A stretch of 32,000 bases of DNA. It comes from Alkalilimnicola ehrlichii MLHE-1 (GTDB lineage Bacteria; Pseudomonadota; Gammaproteobacteria; Nitrococcales; Halorhodospiraceae). The position numbers and the translations under genes are program-made. The DNA lies in NCBI RefSeq assembly GCF_000014785.1, contig NC_008340.1, positions 420,001 through 452,000 of the forward strand, in the 5' to 3' direction. This document shows, in pieces, positions 4,065 to 16,227 of the stretch. The notes beneath the pieces are model-generated. The model did no database searches, was not told the DNA's origin, and saw only the letters and a program-made list of their open reading frames with translations. Each line of letters starts with the position of its first letter. Within the stretch, counting starts at the first letter, position 1.

Positions 4065-4205
4065 CCATGCCCCTCCCACCCGCCGCCGAGCGCACCCCCA
4101 TCCACCGCCGCCAGATCGAGTGCGACGGCTATCGGCGCGAGGCTGGCGAAGCGGTCCAGGTGCTGTACCCGCGCCACTTCCGCCCCGAGGAGTGAGGCCC
4201 GGCGG

Positions 4206-5171
4206 ATGGACGAATTTCAACTCATCCGCAGCTACTTCCAGCCCGACGCCAGGGGCGAGGGCGTGGTGTTGGGGGTGGGTGACGACGCCGCCCTGCTGCA
4301 GCCCGCCCCGGGCCAACTGCTGGTCACCTGCGTGGACACCCTGGTGGCCGGCGTGCACTTCCCCGAAGACGCCCCGCCGGACGCCGTCGGCCACAAGGCC
4401 CTGGCGGTGAACCTCAGCGACCTGGCCGCCATGGGCGCCCGCCCCCGCTGGTTCCAGTTGGCGCTCACCCTCCCGGAGATCGACGAGGCCTGGCTGGCGG
4501 CCTTCTCCAGCGGCCTGCACCGCCTGGCCGCCGAGCAGGACGTGGCCCTGGTCGGCGGCGACACCACCCGCGGGCCCCTCACCATCACGGTCCAGGCCAT
4601 GGGCGAGGTGGCGCCCGCGCAGGCATTGCGCCGGACCGGCGCCCGCGCCGGCGACCGGCTCTACGTGACCGGCACCCTGGGTGATGCCGCCCAGGGGCTG
4701 GCCCTGTGGCAGCGGGGCGTGCGGTCTGCCGGCGGAGATGACCCGGCCGGCTTTCTGATCGACCGGCTGCACCGCCCCACCCCCCGGATGGCCGCAGGCC
4801 GCGCGGCGGCGGGCCTGGCTCGGGCCGCCATCGATATCTCCGACGGCCTGCTCGCGGACCTGGGGCACCTGTTGGAAGGTGGCGAAGGGCTGGGGGCCGT
4901 GCTGCAGGCCGACAGCCTGCCGCTCTCGCCCGCGTACCGCGCGCACTGCGAAGACTCTTTACCGGGGCGGGCGGCCCTGTCCGGGGGCGACGACTACGAG
5001 TTGCTGTTTGCGGTGGCCCCCGAGAACGAGGCGGCATTCCAAACGGCCCTGCAACATGTGCCGGCTGGATGCACCTGCATTGGCTGGATCACCGAGGATT
5101 CGGCGATTACCCTGCAAGGGGACGGAAAGGCGCAGGTCCTGACCCGCCAGGGGTATCAGCACTTCAACTAG
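4206..5171 (+). CDS. thiL: Thiamine-monophosphate kinase
   Basis: 321 aa. MDEFQLIRSYF, GVGDDAALL, AVNLSDLAAMGA, GGDTTRGPL, DISDGL and GGDDYELLF are AIR-synthase-fold ThiL motifs. It sits downstream of nusB as usual. Confidence 0.93.
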   Translation: MDEFQLIRSYFQPDARGEGVVLGVGDDAALLQPAPGQLLVTCVDTLVAGVHFPEDAPPDAVGHKALAVNLSDLAAMGARPRWFQLALTLPEIDEAWLAAFSSGLHRLAAEQDVALVGGDTTRGPLTITVQAMGEVAPAQALRRTGARAGDRLYVTGTLGDAAQGLALWQRGVRSAGGDDPAGFLIDRLHRPTPRMAAGRAAAGLARAAIDISDGLLADLGHLLEGGEGLGAVLQADSLPLSPAYRAHCEDSLPGRAALSGGDDYELLFAVAPENEAAFQTALQHVPAGCTCIGWITEDSAITLQGDGKAQVLTRQGYQHFN

Positions 5172-5208: not shown

Positions 5209-5850
5209 ATGATTCGAAGCCTCATATACGACACCCTCATCCTCAGGCTCACCTCCCGGTGGTATGCCGAGGTGCTTGATCGCCTGCCTGAAGACGCGAC
5301 CCTGCTGGATGTAGGTATCGGCACCGCCGGTGCGCTGCTGGCAAACGCGGACCGGGTCGTGCAAAAACGGCTGCGCATCACCGGCATCGACATCGACACC
5401 GACTACGTGGACCGCGCCCGCAGCCGGATTCGCGATTCCGCCCTGGCCGATCGCGTCGGCGTGCAACTGGAGTCCGTCTACGACCACCAGGGCGGCCCCT
5501 ACGACGCGGTCTACTTCTCCGGCAGTTTTATGCTGCTACCGGAGCCCGAGCAGGCGCTGCGCCACTGCGCCTCGCTGCTGAAACCGGACGGGCGCATCTA
5601 CTTCACCCAGACCATCCAGAAGCGGCCCAGCCGGTGGATGGAAACCCTTAAGCCGATGCTGAAGCGGGTCACCACCATCGACTTCGGCCGAGTGACCTAC
5701 GAGGACGAATTCAGGGCGGAGATTCGGGCGGCCGGGTTGGCGTTGGAGGAATTTACCCTGTTGGCACACCACGGCAGTCGTGCGTCTTGCATCGCGGTCG
5801 CGCGGCCAGCGCATGCATCAGGACCGTGGCCAACCCACCAACGCCCTTAG
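5209..5850 (+). CDS. Class I SAM-dependent methyltransferase (substrate unknown)
   Basis: 213 aa with host-like GC. It has a motif I-like LLDVGIGTAG, an acidic GIDID loop and a post-I/II region (VYFSGSFMLLPEP, LLKPDGRIYF). It lies between thiL and the island, so its last codons may be affected by the island junction. Confidence 0.65.
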   Translation: MIRSLIYDTLILRLTSRWYAEVLDRLPEDATLLDVGIGTAGALLANADRVVQKRLRITGIDIDTDYVDRARSRIRDSALADRVGVQLESVYDHQGGPYDAVYFSGSFMLLPEPEQALRHCASLLKPDGRIYFTQTIQKRPSRWMETLKPMLKRVTTIDFGRVTYEDEFRAEIRAAGLALEEFTLLAHHGSRASCIAVARPAHASGPWPTHQRP

Positions 5851-6027
5851 TGGATTCGCACAGAAGAGCGCGCTAGGTTTGGTGTAAACCAAGTACCAGC
5901 CCCGCTGCCGCCCCGACCGCCTGGAGAAGTGCACGAGCGGCAATGTAGGCCGAAACCATGAATGCCCCCAAGTGCGCCACCTCGCCACGTAACGCCGCGC
6001 CTTTCCGATATGGAAGTGACACCCCCA

Positions 6028-6233
6028 AAGGCAAGACCGGCAAGGCCGACTGGGCGCTGAGCCTGATCGGCAAGCTCTACCGCATCGAACGCGAGGGCAA
6101 GCCCCTCGATGCCGACGGCTGCCTGGCGCTGCGCCGGCCGCTGATCGACAAACTCCAGCGCTGGCTAGAGAAGTCCATCACCCAGGTGCCGCCGAAGACC
6201 GCCATCCGGCCCTTCGTGGTGGGCCGAAAAAAA
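6028..6233 (+). pseudogene. Relic of an IS66-family transposase (TnpC) C-terminal region, internally deleted and truncated
   Basis: It translates to KGKTGKADWALSLIGKLYRIEREGKPLD...PLIDKLQRWLEKSITQVPPKTAI/RPFVVGRK. This is near-identical to the TnpC segment encoded on the opposite strand at 6689-7008, but it lacks 36 codons and both ends. Confidence 0.8.
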
Positions 6234-6456
6234 CCGCCTCAGATGGTGATGCGCTAACACCGCAAAGTAGGCCGGCCGCACCGAGCAGCAGGCCGATGAC
6301 CAGCACCGTGCCGATGGGCGTCGCCCACGCCTGCTGGACCACCGGGGCCTGTTCCCCCAGCCATACGCGCCCGTCGCCACCACTGAAAGGCACCGGCCTG
6401 GTCCGGCTGAGGCTCCGGCTGACCACCATCGATCCCACGTAGGGCCTTCGATAAGG

Positions 6457-8029
6457 GTAAGCGGTCCACCCCGCCCACTTACCGAGCTCGGTCTCAGGCC
6501 TGTATGGTCTTCCCCCAGTTCCAGGGCAGCAGGGCTTGAATCGCCTGGTCGGTGTCCGCAGCCGGCAGGCGGGTGAGGACATCTTCCAAGTACTCGTAGG
6601 GCTCCAGCCCGTTGGCCTTGGCCGTCTCTATCACGCTGTAGATCATCGCGCTGGCCGCCGCGCCCTGGGTGGTGTGACTGAATAGCCAGTTTTTTCGGCC
6701 CACTACGAAAGGCCGGATGGCGTTCTCCGCCGGATTGTTATCCAGCGGGATGCGCCCATCATCGAGAAAGCGGGTCAGCCGGGGCCACTGGGTCTGGAGG
6801 TAGCGTAGGGCCTTGCCGATGGCGGTCTTCGGCGGCACCTGGGTGATGGACTTCTCCAGCCAGCGCTGGAGTTTATCGATCAGCGGCCGGCTCTGCTGCT
6901 GACGCAGTACCAGACGATCCTCCGGGTCCAGGGTTTTGCCTTCGCGTTCGACGCGGTAGAGCTTGCCGATCAGACTCAGCGCCCAGTCGGCCTTGCCGGT
7001 CTTGCCCTTGGGCTGGACCTTCTGGGCCTCGACAAACTTCCGCCGGGCATGCGCCCAGCAGCCGGCATGGGTGATGCCATTCTCCCGCACCACCTGGGCA
7101 TAGCCCTCGTAGCCGTCGGTAACCAGCACGCCGGCATAGTCGCCGAGCAGGCGCTGGGGGACCCGGCCGGAGCGGCTGGTGTCGTAGTCGTAGCGCACCA
7201 CCTGCTCACCGGGCGGACCACCGCGCTGGACCCACATGTAGGAGGTGCTGGAGGCCGTTCGCCCCGGCTCGGTGTTCACCTGGACCGTGGTCTCATCCAT
7301 GTGGATGAGCGGCTGGGCCAGTAGATGGTCCTGCAGGGCCTGCCCCAGCGGGGTGAGCAGCTCGCCGACGCCCACCATCCAGCGCGCCAGGGTGTTACGC
7401 GGCAGCGGGATGCCCTTGCGCTCGAAGCCCTTGGCCTGGCGGTAGAGCGGCAGCCCGTATTCGTACTTGGCGGTGGCGATGTAGGCCAGCAATCCGGGGC
7501 TGGCCATGCTCCGGGGCAGCGGTTGGGGCGGCATGCTTGCGGTGTGCACGCCTTCTTCGCAGCATCTGCAGGCGTACTTGCGGCGGATGTGGCGGCGGAC
7601 CTGCACCCGGGCGGGGATGACATCCAGTTGCTCGGTGACCTCTTCGCCGATGCAGGTCAGCTCGCTGCCGTCATGCGGGCAGTAGCGCTGTGCCTCGGGG
7701 ATATCGTGCACCACCTCGACCCGCGGCAGTTCCGCGGGCAGCCGCACGCGGCCGCCACGGTTCCGGCGCTTGGCCGGCACGCTCGGGGCCGTCTCGCCGG
7801 CTTGAGCGGCCTCTGCCTCCGGTTCGGTGACCGGTGCATCGGCATACTGCTCGGCCTCGTCGAACTGCAGTTGCTGCTGATCGACGTGGTAGCGTTCGGT
7901 GGAGGGGCCGAAACGGCTGTCGAGCAGCAGCCGGATCTGCTCGAACATGGAGCACTCGCGGGCAGCCCAGTGGGCTTCCTTGGTGGCCAACAGGGCGTCC
8001 TTTTCGGCGAGCTTTTTCTCCAGCTCAGC
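6457..8029 (-). mobile_element. IS66-family element, 5'-truncated (tnpC only; one terminal inverted repeat retained)
   Basis: The terminal GTAAGCGG... at 6457, 37 bp beyond the tnpC stop (6494), matches the GTAAGCG-type IS66 end. No matching ...CGCTTAC end, tnpA or tnpB is present on the other side, where the coding frame runs directly into intI sequence near 8030. Confidence 0.75.
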
Positions 8030-8578
8030 GACCTGACGCTGCAGGGGCGTGATCAACTCGTCGGCCAGTGTGACGACCCGATCCTTGCCACCCTTTCCCC
8101 GACGAACGAAGACGGCCCGGTGCCTGAAATCGACATCTTTCACTCTCAGTCGAACACTCTCCAGAAGCCGAAGTCCCGAGCCGTACTGCAGGCAGGCGAT
8201 CAACCAGTACGCCCCGGAGAGATTTGCAAGCAGCCGGGAGACCTCGTCGCGACTCAGTACAACCGGGAGCCGTTCCCGCCGTTTCGCTCGTACTGTGCCG
8301 CCAATCTCCCCGAGTGGTTGCTCAAGGACCTTCGAATACAGAAAGACCAGCGCGTTCAGTGCCTGATTCTGCGTCGCTGGGGCGACATGCCGCTCGACGG
8401 CCAGGTCGGTGAGAAACGCCCTCACCTGTGCCGCGCCCATCTCCCCCGGATGGCGCTTTCCGTGAAACAGGATATAGCGGCGAATCCATGTCAGATAGGC
8501 TTGTTCAGTGCGGATGCTATAGTGCCGAACCCGGATGGCATCACGTACCTGATCGAGAAACGGCGATCGTCTAGCCAT
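6494..8578 (-). CDS. Chimeric ORF: integron integrase N-terminal ~183 aa fused in frame to IS66 TnpC (~511 aa)
   Basis: ATG at 8578 is preceded by GGAGGAG. The IntI-like part ends near ...LITPLQRQV. From AELEKKLAEKDALL onward it reads as IS66 TnpC (RFGPSTER, zinc-finger CPHDGSEL...ACRCCEEG, DETTVQV, VTDGYEGY, CWAHARRKF, NPAENAIRPFVVGRKNWLF). The 55 codons upstream of this ATG in the track ORF are not supported. Confidence 0.7.
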   Translation of the reverse strand: MARRSPFLDQVRDAIRVRHYSIRTEQAYLTWIRRYILFHGKRHPGEMGAAQVRAFLTDLAVERHVAPATQNQALNALVFLYSKVLEQPLGEIGGTVRAKRRERLPVVLSRDEVSRLLANLSGAYWLIACLQYGSGLRLLESVRLRVKDVDFRHRAVFVRRGKGGKDRVVTLADELITPLQRQVAELEKKLAEKDALLATKEAHWAARECSMFEQIRLLLDSRFGPSTERYHVDQQQLQFDEAEQYADAPVTEPEAEAAQAGETAPSVPAKRRNRGGRVRLPAELPRVEVVHDIPEAQRYCPHDGSELTCIGEEVTEQLDVIPARVQVRRHIRRKYACRCCEEGVHTASMPPQPLPRSMASPGLLAYIATAKYEYGLPLYRQAKGFERKGIPLPRNTLARWMVGVGELLTPLGQALQDHLLAQPLIHMDETTVQVNTEPGRTASSTSYMWVQRGGPPGEQVVRYDYDTSRSGRVPQRLLGDYAGVLVTDGYEGYAQVVRENGITHAGCWAHARRKFVEAQKVQPKGKTGKADWALSLIGKLYRVEREGKTLDPEDRLVLRQQQSRPLIDKLQRWLEKSITQVPPKTAIGKALRYLQTQWPRLTRFLDDGRIPLDNNPAENAIRPFVVGRKNWLFSHTTQGAAASAMIYSVIETAKANGLEPYEYLEDVLTRLPAADTDQAIQALLPWNWGKTIQA
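8030..8578 (-). pseudogene. intI: Integron integrase, truncated (catalytic C-terminal half missing)
   Basis: LDQVRDAIRVRHYSIRTEQAYLTWIRRYILFHGKRHPGEMGAAQVRAFLTDLAVERHVAPATQNQALNALVFLY ... LQYGSGLRLLESVRLRVKDVDF ... RRGKGGKDR aligns along its length with IntI1-type integrases. It is divergent from an attI/attC cassette array. The second Arg, the His residues and the Tyr nucleophile are absent. Confidence 0.8.
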
Positions 8579-8597
8579 GGCGGCTCCTCCCTGAGTG

Positions 8598-8613
8598 CTG
8601 TATTTATATACAC
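8598..8613 (-). promoter_or_regulatory. LexA-box-like palindrome upstream of intI
   Basis: CTGTATTTATATACAC fits CTGT-N8-ACAG with an AT-only spacer and one mismatch (final C instead of G). It lies 20-35 nt upstream of the intI ATG, where SOS boxes of integron integrase promoters are found. Confidence 0.45.
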
Positions 8614-8799
8614 TAGCGTGAGACCTAGGGGTACGCAACCGGAGATGGGCGGACGCGTTCCCTCTATCGTGCAGGGTCCGGCCGCTTGGGGAAGCCTGCT
8701 GCGCAAAGCCAACTTGCTGGGTGGATGGAGAAATTACCGGCACACAGCGGTCTGTGGCACGCTAGGTCCGTGCGTGGAAAGGTGGCCTCCGTCCGTGTT

Positions 8800-8835
8800 T
8801 AAAACCGGAAACATTCCGTCTACTACCTGTTAGGC
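8800..8835 (+). other. attI region with crossover core G|TTAGGC (cut between 8829 and 8830)
   Basis: GTTAGGC at 8829-8835 is the exact reverse complement of the R'' core GCCTAAC (9177-9183) that ends the first cassette. It is located between intI and the first cassette ORF. The upstream extent of attI is not determinable by eye. Confidence 0.7.
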
Positions 8836-8858
8836 GAATGAAGTAAGGAGTTTCAACA

Positions 8859-9134
8859 ATGAGTGATTGTGAGTCCAGCCAATGGAGAGATGCGCTCGAA
8901 GCGGAGCTTAAGGCAACCGACAAGACCGATTTGGTGATTCCTTATGGTCAGATCGCTAAGGCTTTCCCTTCCTCGAATCCGCATCCTCGCACCTTTGAAC
9001 ATCCAATGATTGATGATGTCTCTCTGAGAAATTGGGGTTCTGAGAGGGGGTGGTGCATCGACTTGGCTTCGGAGATACTGCCCGAGGGTTCGGACTCTTT
9101 GCCGCCTGTCAGGTTCTACAAAGAACACCAGTAG
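8859..9134 (+). CDS. Hypothetical protein (cassette A, 91 aa)
   Basis: ATG is preceded by AAGGAG at a 9-nt spacing. It is the only sizeable sense ORF in a 440-bp cassette. No motif was recognised. Confidence 0.6.
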   Translation: MSDCESSQWRDALEAELKATDKTDLVIPYGQIAKAFPSSNPHPRTFEHPMIDDVSLRNWGSERGWCIDLASEILPEGSDSLPPVRFYKEHQ

Positions 9135-9176
9135 AGTGAGCTTGGTGTTTCCGCCGATCCTTAGCAGCTTCGGATC

Positions 9177-9275
9177 GCCTAACAAGTCGCTCAAGTTCGC
9201 TACGGCCCTGGCGGGCCTCCGCCGGACGGCTTTTCCGCTGCGCTCCAAAGCCGCCGCTTAGCTCAAACGTTAGCA
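9177..9275 (+). repeat. attC site of cassette A (~99 bp)
   Basis: R'' is GCCTAAC (9177) and R' is GTTAGCA (9269). An internal 7-bp stem CGGCTTT/AAAGCCG closes a TCCGCTGCGCTCC loop that is shared with the other attC sites. Confidence 0.8.
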
Positions 9276-9302
9276 ATACTCAGATTTTCAGGGAGAGTGT
9301 AA

Positions 9303-9713
9303 GTGTCTGGCCTCGTAGAAACCTTCAATATGACTTGCCAGGACGTTGCGTTACTTTGGACTTGTCCGGTTATCGCCGGAGCGGCCAGTTTGGTTAGGGG
9401 GTGGACTTCTGAGTTAGATCTAGTGAAACCCCCGGTATATGAAACCCTTAGTCCAGACGAAGAAGATAGAAAACCAAAACAAACCTCCGAAAATAAAAGA
9501 CAACGAAGCTACTGGGTAGTTGGGATGTTACTGGCCGGGGCAGGAATTGGTTTGGGCTTGGCTCTACTTTTCCTTGGGGCTATACAGCCAACAAGCAGTG
9601 CAGTTGGCAGAGTTTGGTTGCTAGCATTGGTCCTGGGCTATTCAACCCCAATAGTTCTCAAACAAATTGATGGCAAGGTCGAGAAGGCCATTGCTGAGGT
9701 CGACAAAATCTAG
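9303..9713 (+). CDS. Small membrane protein (cassette B, 136 aa; start uncertain)
   Basis: GTG at 9303 follows GGGAGAG; an alternative ATG is at 9330. There is one N-terminal and two C-terminal hydrophobic helices ([41 protein letters not shown]). The stop TAG abuts the R'' core. Confidence 0.55.
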   Translation: MSGLVETFNMTCQDVALLWTCPVIAGAASLVRGWTSELDLVKPPVYETLSPDEEDRKPKQTSENKRQRSYWVVGMLLAGAGIGLGLALLFLGAIQPTSSAVGRVWLLALVLGYSTPIVLKQIDGKVEKAIAEVDKI

Positions 9714-9785
9714 TGCTAACAAGGTGGTCAACGGGACGCCAACTACGCTGCGCTCCGTTGGTGCCCGTTACCACTGGCGTTAGCA
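9714..9785 (+). repeat. attC site of cassette B (72 bp)
   Basis: The site reads TGCTAAC-aag-GTGGTCAACGGG...TACGCTGCGCTCC...CCCGTTACCAC-tggc-GTTAGCA. The L''/L' arms pair with one bulged base. Confidence 0.85.
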
Positions 9786-9798
9786 AGAAGGAGCAAAG

Positions 9799-10680
9799 AT
9801 GGCCGTAGGAGATTGGTTCAGCACATTCTGTGGGAATATCAAGGTCAGTAATAAGGACTCAATATCAAGACGATATAAAGCTATTACAAGAAGACTGAAT
9901 ACTGATTTTTGGGATACAGTTTCTGACACTTCGCACAGTCTTTATGTCGGATCCTATGGTAGAAACACCGCCGTGGGGGGCTTTAGTGACCTTGATATGT
10001 TGTTTCGTTTGCCATATAGCGTCTACGAACGATACAACAATTATAATGGAAACGGCCAGTCTGCATTGCTCCAGGAAGTAAAGCGCTCCATAGAACGAAC
10101 CTATGCCACCACCAAGATTCGTGGTGACGGTCAAGTAATTCTGGTTCCATTTGATGATGGTCTCACTTACGAGGTTGTTCCTGCATTTGTTAATAAAGAT
10201 GATAGCTTCACCTATCCTGATGCAAATAATGGCGGCCGTTGGCGTACCACCAATCCAAAACCAGAAATTGAAGCAATCAGGACGAGGAACAACCAGTGTA
10301 ACAAAAACCTGATTTGGCTTTGTAGGATGATGCGTATTTGGAAAAGAAAATGGGATGTTCCGATAGGAGGCTTGCTGATAGACACGTTGGCCTACCAGTT
10401 TATTGAAAATTGGGAGTATAGAGATAAATCATTTGTGTACTATGATTGGATGTGTCGCGACTTTTTTAATTTTATGGCAAATCAGGATAAAACAAAGGAA
10501 TACTGGAAAGCCCCCGGTAGTGGTCAGTACGTTTATGGCAAAGATTTGTTCCAATGGAAAGCAAGACGTTGTTGCAATATCGCAATAGAGGCATGTAAGC
10601 ACGAGTCAGCAGACCCTAAACGTGAATGGTCAGCCAAACAGAGCTGGAGAGAAATTTTTGGAACCAAATTCCCAAACTAG
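9799..10680 (+). CDS. cGAS/DncV-like (SMODS family) nucleotidyltransferase
   Basis: AAGGAG RBS. The pol-beta NTase signature is GSYGRNTAVGGFSDLDMLF (GS...DxD), with a third acidic strand LTYEVVPAF. The helical C-terminal half (LCRMMRIWKRKW, GGLLIDTLAYQF) is typical of CD-NTases. It is paired with a SLATT gene. Confidence 0.8.
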   Translation: MAVGDWFSTFCGNIKVSNKDSISRRYKAITRRLNTDFWDTVSDTSHSLYVGSYGRNTAVGGFSDLDMLFRLPYSVYERYNNYNGNGQSALLQEVKRSIERTYATTKIRGDGQVILVPFDDGLTYEVVPAFVNKDDSFTYPDANNGGRWRTTNPKPEIEAIRTRNNQCNKNLIWLCRMMRIWKRKWDVPIGGLLIDTLAYQFIENWEYRDKSFVYYDWMCRDFFNFMANQDKTKEYWKAPGSGQYVYGKDLFQWKARRCCNIAIEACKHESADPKREWSAKQSWREIFGTKFPN

Positions 10681-11233
10681 CAATAAAGGACTGGCATACC
10701 TCGAAGAGCAGATTCGGGAGTGCTATGGCCGGGTCGTTTATTCGCATAAAACACATGAGAAATGCGCCGATATTCTTCTGAGTCGGCTTTCAAGTATAAA
10801 GATTGCACAAATTATATTGTCTGCGCTTAGTACAGCCGGTTTCGTTTCGATAATTTTTGGAACTGGGGAAGTTGGGGCGATTGCTGGCGGCTTAGTGTCG
10901 GTTGCATTACTTGTTCTGAATGGGTACACAAAAGATTACGACCTCGGTCAATTGGCGCAGAAGCATCGTCAAGCTGCTGCTGACCTCTGGCTGATTCGCG
11001 AGCAGTATCTCTCCCTTCTGACCGACTTGCGTTCCAATTCAAGCAGTGAAGATGAATTGCGAGAAAAGAGAGATGACTTATTAACCGAGTTGCATGCTCT
11101 TTATTCAGGTGCGCCCAGCACTAATTTTAAAGCATATAAAAAAGCACAAGAAGCCCTGAAGAACCTTGAAGATATGACTTTTTCCGATGAGGAAATTGAC
11201 GCATTTTTGCCAAAGAGTCTGAAAAAGTGCTAA
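10622..11233 (+). CDS. SLATT-domain two-transmembrane effector (start uncertain: GTG 10622 or TTG 10658)
   Basis: It overlaps the end of the NTase gene. GGAGAG lies 6 nt before TTG 10658. The ECYGRVVYSHKTHEKCAD motif is followed by two adjacent hydrophobic helices (IAQIILSALSTAGFVSIIF, AIAGGLVSVALLVLNGY) and a helical tail, as in SLATT proteins. The stop TAA lies inside the attC R'' core. Confidence 0.72.
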   Translation: MNGQPNRAGEKFLEPNSQTSNKGLAYLEEQIRECYGRVVYSHKTHEKCADILLSRLSSIKIAQIILSALSTAGFVSIIFGTGEVGAIAGGLVSVALLVLNGYTKDYDLGQLAQKHRQAAADLWLIREQYLSLLTDLRSNSSSEDELREKRDDLLTELHALYSGAPSTNFKAYKKAQEALKNLEDMTFSDEEIDAFLPKSLKKC

Positions 11234-11297
11234 CAAGTGGCTGTTGGCGGACGTGCCTACGCTTCGCTCCAGCACGCCGCAAAGTCAAGCGTTATAG
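11228..11297 (+). repeat. attC site of cassette C (70 bp)
   Basis: R'' is TGCTAAC (11228) and R' is GTTATAG (11291). The central stem is CGTGC/GCACG around CTACGCTTCGCTCC. Confidence 0.8.
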
Positions 11298-11325
11298 GTC
11301 ATCGTAGTCAAATAGGGATGTAGGC

Positions 11326-12441
11326 ATGAGGGAAGAAGAGAACGAAGAAGAAATCGATCTGCTCAGCGAGGAAGAACAGGCTGAGCGGGAAGAAAAGCTG
11401 GCGAAGCTAGAAAAAGAAAAGAAGGAGCTTTTGGCATCGTTGGCCGGAGGCGATTTCTCCACGCTGAAGACGAAAGTCGCCTATATCCTGAATTTGTACC
11501 CGCAGGCTCGCAACAGCGACATTACTCTATCAATAAAATACTGGGAAACTTTTCAGCCTGATATTTATAACGAATCGGGCATTCTCCCCAAGGACCTTTT
11601 TAAATTGGAAAGGTTGCACTACATAGTGCGCGCGAGAGCGAAAATTCAGAATGAATATGGCCTATTCACCTCTGACTCACCCGTAAAAAAATTCCGCAAG
11701 AAGCGTGAAGAGGAAATGCAGGATGAGGTTCTGAAAGACGCCAGCCCTCGGAAGGTTGTCACTGTCTTTGCCGACGAAACAGGTAAGAACCAAAACTATG
11801 TCGTTGTGGCCTCAGTCTGGGTTCTTACCGGAAGAGCGGTTTATACAATAAGCAAGAGCATCTTAGACTGGCAAAGCTCATCCCTATGGGCCAACAGAGA
11901 AATCCACTTCACAAAGTTTGGCAAAAGAGACAGTGACACGCTCGCTGAATATCTGAACATAATTCAGGCGAATCGTGAATTTTTAAGCTTTAAGGCTATA
12001 GCAGTAGAGCGCAGTCGCACAAAGCGAAAGATTGAAGCTGTTGTCGAGAAGCTGCACGAGCATATGCTCATAAATGGCGTAGAGCACGAGGTCGAACATC
12101 ATCGCATTAGCCCGCCTCAGACTATCAACGTTACTTTGGACGAAGAGCAGTCTTTAGATGCAATTACTCTCGCTGAGGTGAAACGTAGGGTTAATTCTCA
12201 TTTTGAAGACAGGTTTGGTGATGAGATGGCGATGGGCACGCTGGAATCGGTTTCTTCTCGAAAAAGCCCTATGGTGCAGCTTGCCGATCTCATCGCAGGC
12301 GCGATTAACCGAAGGCTTAACCACACCGGTGATAAAAACTACAAAGATGAGATGGCTGGCAGGGTTATTCACGCGCTAGATCTTCAGCTTGGTGAGGACG
12401 AGGTAGACGGAATTGATGTCACAACCTTATTCAAAATCTGA
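11326..12441 (+). CDS. DUF3800-domain protein with ~140-aa N-terminal extension
   Basis: 371 aa. The C-terminal two thirds carry the DUF3800 landmarks VTVFADETG (conserved D-E), REIHFTKF and MVQLADLIAGAI. The N-terminus is an acidic/lysine coiled-coil (EEENEEEIDLLSEEEQAEREEKLAKLEKEKKEL) plus a helical module (LYPQARNSDITLSIKYWE). Confidence 0.7.
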   Translation: MREEENEEEIDLLSEEEQAEREEKLAKLEKEKKELLASLAGGDFSTLKTKVAYILNLYPQARNSDITLSIKYWETFQPDIYNESGILPKDLFKLERLHYIVRARAKIQNEYGLFTSDSPVKKFRKKREEEMQDEVLKDASPRKVVTVFADETGKNQNYVVVASVWVLTGRAVYTISKSILDWQSSSLWANREIHFTKFGKRDSDTLAEYLNIIQANREFLSFKAIAVERSRTKRKIEAVVEKLHEHMLINGVEHEVEHHRISPPQTINVTLDEEQSLDAITLAEVKRRVNSHFEDRFGDEMAMGTLESVSSRKSPMVQLADLIAGAINRRLNHTGDKNYKDEMAGRVIHALDLQLGEDEVDGIDVTTLFKI

Positions 12442-12444
12442 CAC

Positions 12445-12516
12445 CTATAACCAATGCGTTAACGGGACTGGTTTTCCGCTAGCGCTCCAAACCAGCCCAT
12501 TACGCAGGCGTTGGGC
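12445..12516 (+). repeat. attC site of cassette D (72 bp)
   Basis: The site reads CTATAAC-caa-TGCGTTAACGGG-[CTGGTTT TCCGCTAGCGCTCC AAACCAG]-CCCATTACGCA-ggc-GTTGGGC. R'' is complementary to the cassette's first bases TTATAGG (11292). Confidence 0.85.
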
Positions 12517-12526
12517 TTAGAAGAGC

Positions 12527-13120
12527 ATGGACATTAATATCGCTGTCGCACTTATAGCCGGATCAATCACGGCCCTCGGTTGGTTAATAAACCACATATT
12601 GAACTCACGCAGAGAAGCAATACGTGTCGAAGTTCAAGAAAATTTGAATTTCACAAAAGAGCAACTGGAAAAGCTTTACGGTCCGTTGGCATTTGTAATA
12701 CTTGAAGGTAGACGAACTTGGTCTGACCTTTTGGCGGTCCTTGGGCGGGATATTGTCTTCGATGGAGCCAGTGAGATACCAGAAGACGAGCAAGAAATTT
12801 GGAGGTTCTGGGTTGAATACGAGTTCTTGCCAAGAAATAAGAGAATTCGTGACTTGTTGGAGTTGAATGCGCACCTTATAGAAGATGATGGCATACCACA
12901 GTCCTATTCCGATTTTATTGAGCACGAAAGTTCATGGAGGCTTAGATATGCTCGGTGGGAAAAGGAGGGAGGTGAGTATCCGTGGACTTCATCTACCAAC
13001 TGGCCAGACCACTTTGAGAACGATGTTCTGAATACATTTAGCCTTTTGAAGGCGCGGCAGCATAAGCTGAGCGGGTGTATTACGAAGATCGCCCAACAAG
13101 TAGCTCCAGCGGATTCGTAA
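12527..13120 (+). CDS. Hypothetical membrane-anchored protein (cassette E, 197 aa)
   Basis: It has one N-terminal TM helix (INIAVALIAGSITALGWLINHIL) and then a ~170-aa soluble Trp/Glu-rich region with no recognised motif. The RBS is weak. The last 10 codons overlap the attC R'' core. Confidence 0.55.
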   Translation: MDINIAVALIAGSITALGWLINHILNSRREAIRVEVQENLNFTKEQLEKLYGPLAFVILEGRRTWSDLLAVLGRDIVFDGASEIPEDEQEIWRFWVEYEFLPRNKRIRDLLELNAHLIEDDGIPQSYSDFIEHESSWRLRYARWEKEGGEYPWTSSTNWPDHFENDVLNTFSLLKARQHKLSGCITKIAQQVAPADS

Positions 13121-13146
13121 ACTCGCCGCTGAGCTTGGCGTTGGGC
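13091..13146 (+). repeat. attC site of cassette E (56 bp, minimal form)
   Basis: GCCCAAC (13091) pairs perfectly with GTTGGGC (13140). The inner arms AAG(tag)CTC(c)AGCGG / CCGCTGAGCTT pair with two bulges. It lacks the apical stem-loop module of the other sites. Confidence 0.8.
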
Positions 13147-13161
13147 AACACAGGGGGCTAG

Positions 13162-13544
13162 GTGGATCAGAAACGCCTTCCACAACTGATAGAAGAACTT
13201 TACCGCGTCGTGGGCGAGCTGGAGGCAATGTTCCCCGGCAGGCACTTCACCCCCGATGGTCATCTGGTTGGGAGCCTTGGCGAGTGTCTGGCGGCACACC
13301 ACTACGGCTTGGAACTGCTGACAGCCTCTTCCCCGGGCGTGGATGCCATAAAAGGCGAGCTGAAGGTCGAAATCAAGGCAACCCAAGGCCAACGCGTTGC
13401 GCTTCGGAGCGGCCCGGAGCACCTGCTGGTTCTCAAACTGAATAAGCGGGGCGGGTTCTCGGAGGTCTACAATGGCCCCGGCAGACCCGTCTGGAAAGAG
13501 CTGGAGCGTAAGCCACGGCCGAGTAATGGCCAGTACCAGGTCTC
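13162..13544 (+). pseudogene. PD-(D/E)xK-like nuclease-fold gene, 5' part (cassette F), interrupted by an IS
   Basis: GTG start after GGGGG. GSLGECLAAHH ... GVDAI ... KVEIKAT has the E / D / ExK spacing of restriction-endonuclease-like folds. The track ORF tail 13545-13671 is IS sequence. Confidence 0.55.
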
Positions 13545-13667
13545 CCAAGTTCCACACTTCAGATCGAAAACCCAAGGGGTTGTGGGACGTAAGTGCTTGA
13601 AGCGATTGATCTGCGCGGCCAGAACCAGCCAAGCCGCTGTTGTGTCACGCGAATCCTATACTGGCTA

Positions 13668-13695
13668 TTGATTGCAGGTCTCTGGGTGGCATAAT
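13668..13695 (+). promoter_or_regulatory. Candidate sigma70 promoter of the IS transposase
   Basis: TTGATT-16 nt-CATAAT, ending 9 nt before the transposase ATG region (ATG at 13704). Confidence 0.4.
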
Positions 13696-13703
13696 GTCAT
13701 GCC

Positions 13704-15392
13704 ATGTACACGCGCATCACAAAGTCCGGCCCGCGCCGCTATTTGCAGTTGGTCGAGGGCTACCGAGACGCCAACGGCAAGGTTAAACAGCGTGTGGTAG
13801 CCAGCCTGGGTCGCCTTGATCAGCTTGAGGCAGCCGACCTAGAGCCGCTCATCAAGGGACTCCAACGGGCGGTGGGGCGTCCTGAATCATTGCCTGAAGC
13901 GCCTCAGTTCGAGACCGCCCGCGCCTTTGGCGATGTGTGGACCCTCCATCAGCTCTGGCAGGAGTTAGGCCTGGATGGGGCCTTGAAACGGGCTCTGCGC
14001 TCCTCCCGACGACAGTTCGATGCCGAGGCACTCATCCGAGCCATGGTTTTCAACCGCCTCGCTGAGCCGAGCAGCAAACGCGGCACGCTGGAGTGGTTGC
14101 GCGAGAGCACCAGCATGCCCGGGCTCGATGCCTCGACCGTGCACCACGAGCAACTCCTGCGTGCCATGGATGCGTTGGAGGACCACAAGGAGGCCGTGGA
14201 GCGTGCGGTAGCCGGCCAGTTGCGGCCGCTGCTTGACCAGGATCTCAGCGTCATCTTTTACGATCTCACCACGGTACGCATCCACGGCACCCATGCGATG
14301 GAAGACGATATCCGTCAGCATGGCCTCAGCAAGGACACCGCCGGTATTGGCCGCCAATTTGCGCTGGGGGTGGTCCAGACTGCCGAAGGCCTGCCGATCG
14401 CCCACGAGGTCTTCGAGGGGAATGTCGCCGAGACGCGCACCCTGGCCCCAATGATTGAACGTCTGCTGGAGCGTTTCGCGCTCGCCCGCGTGGTGGCGGT
14501 CGCCGACCGCGGCCTGCTCAGCTTCGATAACATCGACACTCTGGAGGCACTGGGCGTCGAGCAGGGGCTGGCGGTCGACTACATTCTGGCTGTACCCGCC
14601 CGGCGTTACGGGGACTTCACCGAGGTGATGGAGTCTCTGCATACGCAACTGGAAACCGCCGTCACCGAGCCTAGTCAGGACGTGGTGACCGAAACCACCT
14701 GGCAGGGCCGACGCCTGGTGGTGGCCCACAATGCCGAACGGGCCGCCGAGCAGAGCGCGCAGCGTCGGCAGACCATCGAAGAGCTTGACGCCCTTGGTGC
14801 CCAACTCGCCGAGCGACTCGATAATCAGGATGCTGGCCAGCCCGGTCGTGGGCGGCGTTCCACAGACCGTAGTGCCTACCAGCGCTTCCACAAGGCCGTG
14901 CTGGAGAGGCGCATGAGCGCGATCATCAAGGCCGATCTCGGCTCGCCGCAATTCAGCTACACCATCGATGAGCCCGCCTGGGCGGCTGCCGAACGTCTGG
15001 ACGGCAAGCTACTGCTGGTTACCAGCCTCACCGACATGGGGGCGGAAGCCGTGGTAGAGCGTTACCGCTCCCTGGCCGATATCGAGCGTGGATTCCGGGT
15101 ACTCAAGAGCGAGATTGAAATCGCGCCGGTCTACCACCGGCTGCCGGAGCGCATTCGGGCGCACGCGTTGATTTGCTTCCTCGCGCTGGTGCTCTACCGG
15201 GTCTTGCGCGGGCGCCTCAAGGCCGCCGGCAGCGCCTGCTCACCGGAAAAGCTGCTACGGAGCCTGCGGCAAATCCAGCGGCACACGGTGCGTGTGGGTA
15301 GCCGCGCCTACGAAGGGCTTACCCGACCCAACCAGGAACAGCTGGACCTTTTCGAAGCCGCCGGCGTGGAGGTTCCGAAGGCCCCTCGTTGA
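13704..15392 (+). CDS. IS1634-family DDE transposase
   Basis: 562 aa. The N-terminus MYTRITKSGPRRYLQLVEGYRDANGKVKQRVVASLGRLD is characteristic of IS1634-type transposases. The DDE context is VIFYDLTT, AVADRGLLS and YRSLADIERGFRVLKSEIEIAPVYH. Confidence 0.88.
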   Translation: MYTRITKSGPRRYLQLVEGYRDANGKVKQRVVASLGRLDQLEAADLEPLIKGLQRAVGRPESLPEAPQFETARAFGDVWTLHQLWQELGLDGALKRALRSSRRQFDAEALIRAMVFNRLAEPSSKRGTLEWLRESTSMPGLDASTVHHEQLLRAMDALEDHKEAVERAVAGQLRPLLDQDLSVIFYDLTTVRIHGTHAMEDDIRQHGLSKDTAGIGRQFALGVVQTAEGLPIAHEVFEGNVAETRTLAPMIERLLERFALARVVAVADRGLLSFDNIDTLEALGVEQGLAVDYILAVPARRYGDFTEVMESLHTQLETAVTEPSQDVVTETTWQGRRLVVAHNAERAAEQSAQRRQTIEELDALGAQLAERLDNQDAGQPGRGRRSTDRSAYQRFHKAVLERRMSAIIKADLGSPQFSYTIDEPAWAAAERLDGKLLLVTSLTDMGAEAVVERYRSLADIERGFRVLKSEIEIAPVYHRLPERIRAHALICFLALVLYRVLRGRLKAAGSACSPEKLLRSLRQIQRHTVRVGSRAYEGLTRPNQEQLDLFEAAGVEVPKAPR

Positions 15393-15472
15393 CCGTGTTG
15401 TGGCATTTTTCGAATTCCGGGCCTAACAGGATCAGATAGTTACGGCGTTAACTGTGGAACTTGGGAGGTCTC

Positions 15473-15596
15473 GCTGAAGCGCCTCAAGGCGGTCATGCAG
15501 CAGGTTCCGGAAGGGCAACGCCTCCCGATGCTGGTCCCGAACAATGCGCGCACGCCGACCGGCTTTTCCGCTGCCGGTCCCGAGCCGCTGGCTTGA
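15473..15596 (+). pseudogene. 3' part of the IS-interrupted cassette F gene
   Basis: Joining 13544 to 15473 (IS plus one AGGTCTC copy removed) keeps the frame: ...NGQYQVS LKRLKAVMQQVPEGQRLPMLVPNNARTPTGFSAAGPEPLA*. This gives a 168-aa protein. Confidence 0.55.
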
Positions 15597-15642
15597 ACGG
15601 GCACCGGCGTCTGCCGACCACGCAAGCCCCGGCACGTTGGGG
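15536..15642 (+). repeat. Degenerate terminal attC (cassette F)
   Basis: CCCGAAC-aa-TGCGCGCACGCC-GACCGGCTTTTCCGCTGCCGGTCCCGAGCCGCTGG is clearly homologous to the cores of attC A and D (CGGCTTTTCCGCTGC). However, the 3' arm is divergent and the GTTGGGG at 15636 is only a tentative R'. Confidence 0.45.
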
Positions 15643-15747
15643 AAAACAACCCACCCGACGTTACACTAACCCGCAATCCACGGGGCGCCCTGGCTTTGCC
15701 GCGCCCGTTCCAGTGCCCAACCACAACCACCCGGGAGCCCAACCTCA

Positions 15748-16227
15748 GTGACCGCACCGACCGACCGCTTCCAACTCCGCAACCCCTGGCACTTCCTCGC
15801 TCTGGGCTTCGGCTCCGGCCTGGCGCCCAAGGCCCCCGGCACCTTCGGCACGGTGGCGGCCATCCCGGTCTACCTGCTGTTGGCGCCGCTGCCCCTGTGG
15901 GCCTATCTGCTGGCGGTGGTGGCGGTCTGCGTGGCGGGGGTCTGGATCTGCGATATCGCCGCCCACGACGTGGGCGTACACGATCACCCGGCCATTGTCT
16001 GGGACGAGATCGCCGGTTACCTGATCACTATGATCGCGGTGCCGCTGGGGCTGGTCTGGGTGGTGGCCGGGTTCGTGCTGTTCCGGTTCTTCGACATCCT
16101 CAAGCCCTGGCCCATCCGCTGGCTGGACCGCCACGTGCACGGCGGGCTGGGCATCATGGTCGATGACATCCTGGCCGGGGTGTTCGCCCTGGTGGTGCTG
16201 CACGCGCTGGTCTGGCTGGTGGGGTAG
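15748..16227 (+). CDS. pgpA: Phosphatidylglycerophosphatase A
   Basis: GTG start. NPWHFLALGFGSGLAPKAPGTFGTVAAIP, GVHDHPAIVWDEIAGY, DILKPWPIRWLDRHVHGGLGIMVDDILAG align closely with E. coli PgpA. Confidence 0.92.
   Translation: MTAPTDRFQLRNPWHFLALGFGSGLAPKAPGTFGTVAAIPVYLLLAPLPLWAYLLAVVAVCVAGVWICDIAAHDVGVHDHPAIVWDEIAGYLITMIAVPLGLVWVVAGFVLFRFFDILKPWPIRWLDRHVHGGLGIMVDDILAGVFALVVLHALVWLVG

Follow-up and report, generated by a model that had tools for sequence, protein, structure and literature searches.

The 32,000-nucleotide stretch of the Alkalilimnicola ehrlichii MLHE-1 chromosome analysed here (NC_008340.1, positions 420,001 to 452,000; hereafter the window) contains a small chromosomal integron with a dead integrase, lodged between a methyltransferase gene that lies beside thiL and the gene pgpA. 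We put the probability of this reading at about 0.93. The integron is a well-resolved case of a type of element that is already known, and it changes nothing about the understanding of integrons; no description of an A. ehrlichii integron was found in the literature searched. Large IntegronFinder surveys have probably already scanned the MLHE-1 genome, which dates from 2006. Guanine-plus-cytosine (GC) content is about 70% in the window and falls to 41-55% across 8.8-13.1 kb, and homology to an integron-free relative sets the limits of the foreign block at roughly 6.0 and 15.65 kb. Within this block, the cassettes that we call A to E have 53.9, 49.4, 43.8, 46.8 and 46.2% GC and the integrase gene fragment 60.2%, against 69.5-71.3% in the flanks. 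A prediction made earlier from the letters alone had remarked on low-GC cassettes; the contrast with flanks of 70-71% is real, although A and B lie above the claimed range of 38-48%. The same prediction had extended the integron over 5851-15747 and counted six cassettes. The array itself stands, but the segment 5851-8033 is debris of insertion sequences (ISs) and no part of the integron, and of the six cassettes five (A-E) are canonical while the sixth (F) is decayed, terminal, interrupted by an IS and equipped with a degenerate attC site.

An integron integrase, IntI, acts on hairpins folded from the attC bottom strand and recombines them with attI at a cut in GTT (G/TT), and promoterless circular cassettes join beside attI. 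Each unit in MLHE-1 has an R'' core (GCCTAAC at 9177, TGCTAAC at 9714 and 11228, CCTATAAC at 12444, GCCCAAC at 13091 and CCCGAAC at 15536) and starts at such a cut (TTAGGC at 8830, TTAGCA at 9270 and 9780, TTATAGG at 11292, TTGGGC at 12511 and 13141). These coordinates had all been predicted, and all were correct when checked against the sequence, as was the co-orientation of the cassette open reading frames (ORFs), every one of which is on the plus strand. It had further been claimed that the first bases of each unit are the reverse complement of that unit's own 3' core. The relation is perfect for cassettes A to E, but it is informative at three junctions only, those of A, C and D, where neighbouring cassettes differ. 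There, the 3' core agrees with its own 5' end at 7/7 positions and with the physically adjacent R' at 5/7, 4/7 and 3/7. The chance of such a match at the discriminating positions is about 4^-9, a back-of-envelope estimate rather than the result of a tool. Insertion of circular cassettes predicts exactly this pattern, in which R'' matches the 5' end of its own cassette in preference to that of its neighbour.

The attC sites are recognized by covariance models. A strict regular expression for the textbook consensus, RYYYAAC...GTTRRRY, detects the site of cassette E (attC_E) alone and is too strict, and covariance models were used instead. One model (R1) was built from the five candidate sites of the window; it found 14 sites in three unrelated integrons, one of them in Nitrosococcus halophilus Nc4, whose intI genes, intact or partial, had been fetched independently. 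All 14 lie upstream of intI on the strand opposite to it, and none lies elsewhere. The 12 best of these foreign sites alone went into a second model (R2), which, run over the whole window without filters, returned attC_B at 9714-9785 (50.1 bits, E 2.4e-10), attC_D at 12445-12516 (41.6 bits, E 3.1e-8), attC_E at 13091-13146 (41.4 bits, E 3.6e-8), attC_A at 9206-9275 (33.7 bits, E 2.9e-6) and attC_C at 11228-11297 (30.7 bits, E 1.7e-5). These five are on the plus strand, 0.44-1.5 kb apart and at the coordinates of the original prediction, and R2 gave no other match in the window below E 0.6, the rest being noise. The proposed check by covariance model thus yielded strong, strand-specific matches confined to the array, which has the at least two attC sites on one strand, at cassette-sized spacing, by which an integron is known. 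An Rfam scan of the window gave no match; no attC model matched in it, so that it is uninformative either way. The sites are 56-99 nt long, those of A to D have a common conserved centre, and 15 of 22 base pairs show compensatory changes. When bottom strands are folded, as had also been proposed, attC_B, attC_D and attC_E form clear hairpins in which bases on the R''/L'' arm are bulged (z -2.97, -3.5 and -4.2; the bulged bases of attC_B are T and G), whereas attC_A, attC_C and the sixth site fold no better than shuffles. The 99-nt length of attC_A is due to some 27 extra nt inside 9184-9215 (TTCGCTACGGCCCTGGCGGGCCTCCGC), which can form a small hairpin of their own between the L box and the main stem; R2 aligns only 9206-9275 of this site.

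Direct evidence that these units have been moved comes from a sister strain, the second A. ehrlichii chromosome CP184336.1 (loci L050 and L054), which has the same frame of ribH-nusB-thiL-methyltransferase and, beyond the integron, pgpA. Its intI is intact. The 331-amino-acid product scores 482.5 bits on the integron-integrase model TIGR02249 (cut-off 265), has the IntI-specific segment LPxALxxKYPNA...W.Y.FPS together with a catalytic C-terminus, and finds its best solved-structure match in VchIntIA (IntI4; 2A3V, E 8.5e-105). The array of this strain starts with an NsnA/GmrSD-like gene, broken by an ISL3 element, plus a HEPN gene, and continues with a pair of genes for a cyclic-oligonucleotide-based antiphage signalling system (CBASS) and then with cassettes E, B and F, after which comes pgpA. 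Between the two strains, the 5' part of intI with attI is 99% identical, cassette B 99%, E 99.5% and F 97%. Identity switches exactly at GTT, both at attI (8829-8831) and at the sister-strain junctions from E to B and from B to F, and therefore the units are cassettes moved by an integron integrase. Cassettes B and E stand at different array positions in the two strains, as discrete mobile units do. The original prediction was to fail if close relatives carried the same AT-rich genes without attC-like boundaries; the sister strain carries some of the same genes with attC boundaries, in another order and with crossovers exactly at G/TT. Just downstream of its intact intI lie two nested IS3-family elements (L050 85-2990), while ISL3 splits its first cassette; the integron platform draws IS insertions in both strains.

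Low GC, IS elements and a nearby fragment of a tyrosine recombinase would equally fit an ordinary genomic island, mobilized by an XerC/XerD-like or phage-type recombinase and carrying unrelated palindromes of the repetitive extragenic type between its genes. Yet the integron-integrase model gives the recombinase fragment 236.6 bits, about four times the 60.4 and 54.2 bits that it reaches with XerC and XerD, which settles in favour of IntI a comparison that had been named as decisive. The repeats match attC models trained on foreign sites, on one strand and in the array only, and the strains differ by a cassette-by-cassette permutation at G/TT. The results from covariance models and strain comparison have already refuted this alternative.

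The integron is dead because its integrase is. An integrase-like N-terminus had been predicted at 8578 to 8030 on the minus strand, and this was borne out, with the integrase part running from 8578 to 8034. The 236.6 bits of the fragment fall short of the family cut-off of 265, which applies to the whole protein. After codon 182 of 331, the frame leaves integrase sequence and continues into the tnpC gene of an IS66 element across an in-frame junction between 8033 and 8034, the breakpoint being defined by alignment to the intact sister-strain allele. The ORF at 6494-8743 on the minus strand is accordingly a fusion, in which residues 62-249 match TIGR02249 and residues from about 268 to 741 match IS66-family TnpC (489 bits); thousands of proteins, several of which bear the name integron integrase, are 65-78% identical to the residues on the intI side. 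This fusion explains why a gene annotated in MLHE-1 as a transposase has a phage-integrase domain. The ORF comprises 749 amino acids, and the GenBank annotation gives a 569-amino-acid protein with integrase and IS66 domains. Missing from the intI stump are the catalytic H, R, H/W and Y residues as well as the IntI-specific segment. A tblastn search with five full-length relatives found no C-terminal half of intI in the 32-kb window, which thus holds no intact IntI with the complete catalytic set (R-K-H-R-H/W-Y) and the extra segment specific to IntI. With no 3' part of the gene in these 32 kb and the catalytic residues lost, the integrase is dead and the array is frozen in MLHE-1; it would stay so unless an integrase were supplied in trans.

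How the stump arose can be read in part from the sister strain. Identity between the two strains, 98% up to 6457, ends there and starts again at 8034, and the IS66 sequence that fills the interval has a right terminus (GTAAGCG at 6457/6458) but no left end, no tnpA or tnpB and not the first codons of tnpC. The simplest history is an insertion of IS66 followed by a deletion of the left half of the IS, the 3' half of intI and the intervening DNA. This IS66-associated deletion took the 3' 45% of intI, including the IntI-specific segment and the catalytic His, Arg and Tyr, plus DNA downstream. Because both the IS66 and the IS1634 sequences interrupt short-read assemblies, one could suspect that the junction is an assembly chimera formed at a repeated IS, but we regard this as most improbable. 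In two further read sets, the short-read contigs L052 and L053 extend from cassette F through the array and intI to about 22 nt inside IS66; judged from the offsets of their cassette genes, they start near window position 8012. The complete long assembly CP183314.1 (3.26 Mb) has the same structure, and so, it appears, does the 2006 assembly, in which the consecutive accessions ABI55735-ABI55743 cover the same genes.

The shared frame of the intI stump and tnpC is probably accidental. It is conceivable that an SOS-expressed chimera of IntI residues 1-182 and TnpC couples the attC/attI-binding N-terminal domain of the integrase to a DDE transposase and steers IS66-type cleavage or transposition to integron sites, but we consider this exceedingly unlikely, given that frames match by accident one time in three and that the IS has neither a left end nor tnpA/tnpB. 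No similar fusion was found among the 120 best IntI homologues, none of which exceeds 321 amino acids. The closest homologue found (78% identical; locus L049 10001-10726, GCA_041690635.1) has only 241 amino acids, although it lies inside a large contig with attC matches beside it, and L049 may be another integron with a truncated integrase.

A further question is how the platform reached this site. An older IS66 remnant, inverted and internally deleted, lies exactly where homology to the integron-free relative ends on the left, and both strains have it. The integron could thus have arrived as cargo of an IS66-bounded composite element instead of being inherited vertically, with the remnant at the left edge as the scar. 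The GC content of the intI fragment (60%) and cassettes (44-54%) relative to that of the host (70%) would fit such a delivery, as would the nearest IntI relatives, which belong to other lineages and are no more than 78% identical. We think this unlikely all the same: the right edge near pgpA has no IS66 copy or remnant, no target duplication surrounds the region, and in the integron-free relative an IS3 element lies almost at this position, which may mean no more than that the spacer tolerates insertions. Within 5851-6457, inverted repeats I1-I3 match 6690-7012. Some 200 bp at 6258-6457, common to both strains, separate the old remnant from the newer IS66 end, and their minus strand resembles a fragment of a membrane protein (...VWLGEQAPVVQQAWATPIGTVLVIGLLLGAAGLL...).

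The region between intI and the array is that of an attI site. The predicted GTTAGGC on the divergent side of intI is present at 8829-8835, attI adjoins intI, and beyond the GTT the two strains have different first cassettes. Ahead of the intI start codon, at a distance of 20 nt, is a palindrome resembling a LexA box, and similar boxes are found upstream of intI in two related integrons (L046 and L047), which is suggestive of control of intI by LexA and the SOS response. By the established biology of integrons, intI was transcribed leftwards, probably under LexA/SOS control, and IntI placed new circular cassettes beside attI while cutting out or rearranging those already present; the cassette genes would be expressed from a Pc promoter. 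That the cassettes have no evident promoters of their own, as predicted, agrees with a count of 5 promoter-like sites in the array compared with 4.5 ± 2.0 in shuffled sequences; scans for promoters and terminators gave nothing above chance.

Several observations weigh against parts of this account. Model R2 depends partly on the window, since its training sites were picked by the window-derived R1, although the training sequences lie in bona fide integrons and have the correct geometry. The sixth site, 15536-15615, reaches only 12.2 bits with R2 (E 0.66) and is not significant, so that "six cassettes" overstates the number of recombinogenic units. Minimum-free-energy folding fails to produce the full hairpin for attC_A and attC_C, for which manual pairing was needed; in attC_A, inspection by hand gives an L-box pairing of GCT(C)AAG with CTTAGC. 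The LexA-like box has one mismatch, and the count of this pattern in the window is not above chance. No Pc promoter was identified, and 8300-9000 contains no match to the sigma-70 consensus. Finally, the search for intI covered 32 kb of a 3.26-Mb genome, and a second copy could lie elsewhere. This last point bears on whether the integron is in fact fully functional in MLHE-1, with an intact or complemented integrase and an array that is still being reshuffled, as might be thought from its five canonical attC sites and from an attI identical to that of a strain with intact intI. We hold this to be very unlikely, considering that the frame passes into IS66 tnpC after codon 182, that the window nowhere encodes the catalytic Tyr, the HxxR motif or the IntI-specific segment, and that independent read sets have the same intI-IS66 junction. 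The features of the integron with an inactivated integrase, and of its chromosomal context, are listed in Table 1.

Table 1. Features of the integron region of A. ehrlichii MLHE-1, in window coordinates.
Feature	Position	Strand	Description
thiL	4206-5171	+	Thiamine-phosphate kinase; left chromosomal context
Methyltransferase gene	5209-5850	+	Class I S-adenosylmethionine (SAM) methyltransferase; Pfam methyltransferase domains; same position in integron-free relative L059
Old debris	5851-6457		Common to both A. ehrlichii strains; includes inverted, internally deleted IS66 tnpC remnant at about 6013-6257 (+)
IS66-family element	6458-8033	-	5'-truncated; NF033517 transpos_IS66 489 bits; Pfam IS66 domains
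intI pseudogene	8034-8578	-	Codons 1-182 of 331; TIGR02249 positions 1-187 of 315, 236.6 bits; 99% identical to intact sister-strain gene
intI-attI intergenic region	8579-8831	+	attI crossover in GTT between 8829 and 8830; identical to sister strain up to GTT (8829-8831)
LexA-box-like palindrome	8598-8613		CTGTATTTATATACAC; one mismatch
Cassette A	8830-9269	+	ORF 8859-9134 (91 aa); attC 9177-9275 (99 nt), R1 69.2 bits
Cassette B	9270-9779	+	ORF 9303-9713 (136 aa); attC 9714-9785
Cassette C	9780-11291	+	SMODS/CD-NTase cyclase 9799-10680; SLATT_4 two-transmembrane (2TM) effector 10658-11233; attC 11228-11297
Cassette D	11292-12510	+	DUF3800 protein 11326-12441 (371 aa); attC 12445-12516
Cassette E	12511-13140	+	Orphan 197-aa protein 12527-13120; attC 13091-13146
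Cassette F (terminal, decayed)	13141-15636	+	DUF6998 ORF 13162-13543 + 15472-15596, 159 bits; degenerate attC from 15536
IS1634-family IS	13544-15465	+	1922 bp; transposase 13704-15392, NF033559 393 bits; inverted repeats CCCAAGTTCCACA (I13)
pgpA	15748-16227	+	Right context; homology to integron-free relative clear from 15728, visible from about 15650

The cargo had been described as mostly unannotatable or defence-like. Defence-like is a firm description for cassette C only. By the matches of its two products (Pfam SMODS 194 bits and SLATT_4 251 bits; PADLOC cyclase PDLC00786 486 bits over its full length and 2TM effector PDLC00696 279 bits), cassette C is a complete two-gene type I CBASS pair. 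It consists, as that type does, of a cyclase and a single effector with no Cap2/Cap3 or other ancillary genes, and none would fit between the attC sites that bound it. It would be expected to act in phage defence through cyclic-oligonucleotide signalling. Homologues of this cassette occur in six unrelated metagenome contigs with R2-positive attC flanks on the same strand, and its protein cluster at 90% identity includes members from Marinomonas, Halomonas, Salinivibrio, Vibrio furnissii and Flexistipes. The CBASS pair of the sister strain is a different one, composed of a cyclase and a Cap15-type 2TM effector. The product of cassette D matches Pfam DUF3800 and, with 46.7 bits, the PADLOC candidate family PDC-M04A. 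Cassettes A, B and E appear to belong to no informative family. The cassette A protein has no match in the libraries searched, Pfam, PADLOC and PHROG among them, and that of cassette B has weak ones only, to a DUF6249-like family on Pfam and to phrog_15254. For the cassette E protein, there was no match in Pfam, PADLOC or PHROG and there are only 19 homologues among 5.8 billion proteins; its AlphaFold2 (AF2) model is a helical bundle with a pLDDT of 85, for which no fold match in the PDB was found at E <= 0.001.

Cassette F has decayed at both its gene and its attC site. An IS1634-family element has inserted into the gene, generating a 6-bp target duplication (AGGTCT at 13538-13543 and 15466-15471), and when the element is deleted in silico together with one of the two AGGTCT copies, the result is a 168-amino-acid DUF6998 ORF that corresponds to the uninterrupted sister-strain allele. 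The annotated 169-amino-acid DUF6998 protein is therefore a chimera with IS sequence. The attC site of this cassette ends at 15615 according to the covariance model, or at 15642 if the GTTGGGG of the original prediction is taken as its end, and it is equally weak in both strains (12.2 bits in the window, 14.9 bits in the sister strain). Its centre is 91% identical to that of attC_A (repeat family D5).

The surroundings of the integron agree in the main with what had been said of them. As thiL ends at 5171 and pgpA starts at 15748, they are 10.6 kb apart, close to the 10.5 kb predicted. The two genes are indeed normally adjacent, with fewer than 80 bp between them in 27 of the 39 related loci. 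The foreign block does interrupt this interval, but the split that it caused is between the methyltransferase gene and pgpA, the methyltransferase gene having already been between thiL and pgpA in the lineage. The comparison with relatives that had been called for turned up both an integron-free relative and, in the sister strain, an array variant. A ThiL search of representative genomes gave relatives at most 54% identical, which were used for the synteny statistics and included no empty site; the relative with the empty site, the metagenome locus L059, was found through methyltransferase homologues. It reads ribH-nusB-DUF2889-thiL-methyltransferase-IS3-pgpA, its methyltransferase is 84% identical to that of MLHE-1, and its homology to the window ends on the left at about 6004-6012. 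None of the 39 related loci has the methyltransferase. By its synteny in L059, the methyltransferase gene is the ancestral neighbour of thiL in the lineage and lies outside the integron. We also considered that it might be a displaced cassette, a methyltransferase being the first cassette in L049, and rejected the idea: the proteins are unrelated, there is no attC nearby and the gene is syntenic in L059. The site between the methyltransferase gene and pgpA is a fixed chromosomal one, occupied alike in two complete A. ehrlichii chromosomes.

Further features of this neighbourhood deserve mention. The methyltransferase is 75-84% identical to proteins from distant lineages (Longimicrobium, Halomonas/Billgrantia and Thioalkalivibrio), its gene has 64% GC against 71% in the left flank, and it matches the PADLOC model mad2 with 59.8 bits; it looks like a horizontally spread gene. 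Three distant relatives (L003, L006 and L010) have 0.8-2.0 kb inserted between thiL and pgpA, and this spacer may be a recurrent insertion point. The gap between nusB and thiL contains no more than a 42-codon ORF (4067-4195) in A. ehrlichii, compared with a gene for a 185-amino-acid DUF2889 protein in L059 (2064-2621).

In regard to known systems, the A. ehrlichii integron resembles the sedentary chromosomal integrons of gammaproteobacteria, such as the Vibrio cholerae superintegron with VchIntIA and those of Xanthomonas and Pseudomonas. It has a divergent intI/attI and a co-oriented, attC-bounded array, its integrase has VchIntIA as best structural match, promoter-like sites in the array do not exceed shuffles, and attC sites A to D have a conserved centre. 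It also keeps the same chromosomal site in two strains while the content of the array differs between them. Superintegrons hold tens to hundreds of cassettes, whereas the A. ehrlichii array is very small, numbering 6 units in MLHE-1 and 5 in the sister strain; with 5-6 cassettes and attC sites of 56-99 nt that have only a conserved centre in common, it is not one of the large arrays, which usually have more than 20 cassettes and highly homogeneous, species-specific attC sites. Unlike those of sedentary integrons, moreover, its cassettes lie 16-27 GC points below the host and are not host-adapted, and intI has been truncated by an IS in MLHE-1. In this respect, the locus approaches the categories reportedly distinguished by Cury et al. 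in 2016 with IntegronFinder, namely clusters of attC sites lacking integron-integrases (CALIN) and integrons with inactivated intI, in having an attC array with no functional integrase and IS elements inside the platform. It differs from these categories in that MLHE-1 retains a recognizable 182-codon intI stump and an intact attI. Since a conspecific strain has a complete intI, inactivation was a recent event that can be dated.

Integron cassettes that encode defence systems have been published as bacteriophage-resistance integron cassettes (BRiCs), among them brc135, a two-ORF type I CBASS-like cassette (Kieffer et al., bioRxiv 10.1101/2024.07.02.601719); the V. cholerae superintegron is the subject of work by Darracq et al. 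as cited within that preprint. Cassette C is like the BRiCs in being a compact pair of cyclase and 2TM effector bounded by attC, and the sister strain holds a different CBASS cassette. The host, however, is a haloalkaliphilic arsenite oxidizer rather than a clinical isolate or a Vibrio.

Taken together, the two strains display three stages in the life of an integron within one species: an active platform in the sister strain, reshuffling at G/TT, and a recent, IS-mediated death in MLHE-1. Decay has since gone further in MLHE-1, where an IS lies inside a cassette and the terminal attC is degenerate. The presence of two different CBASS pairs in the same integron of two strains of a soda-lake extremophile supports the recent view of chromosomal integrons as anti-phage stores, and one of the two also circulates, as a cassette bounded by attC sites, among unrelated integrons from the environment.

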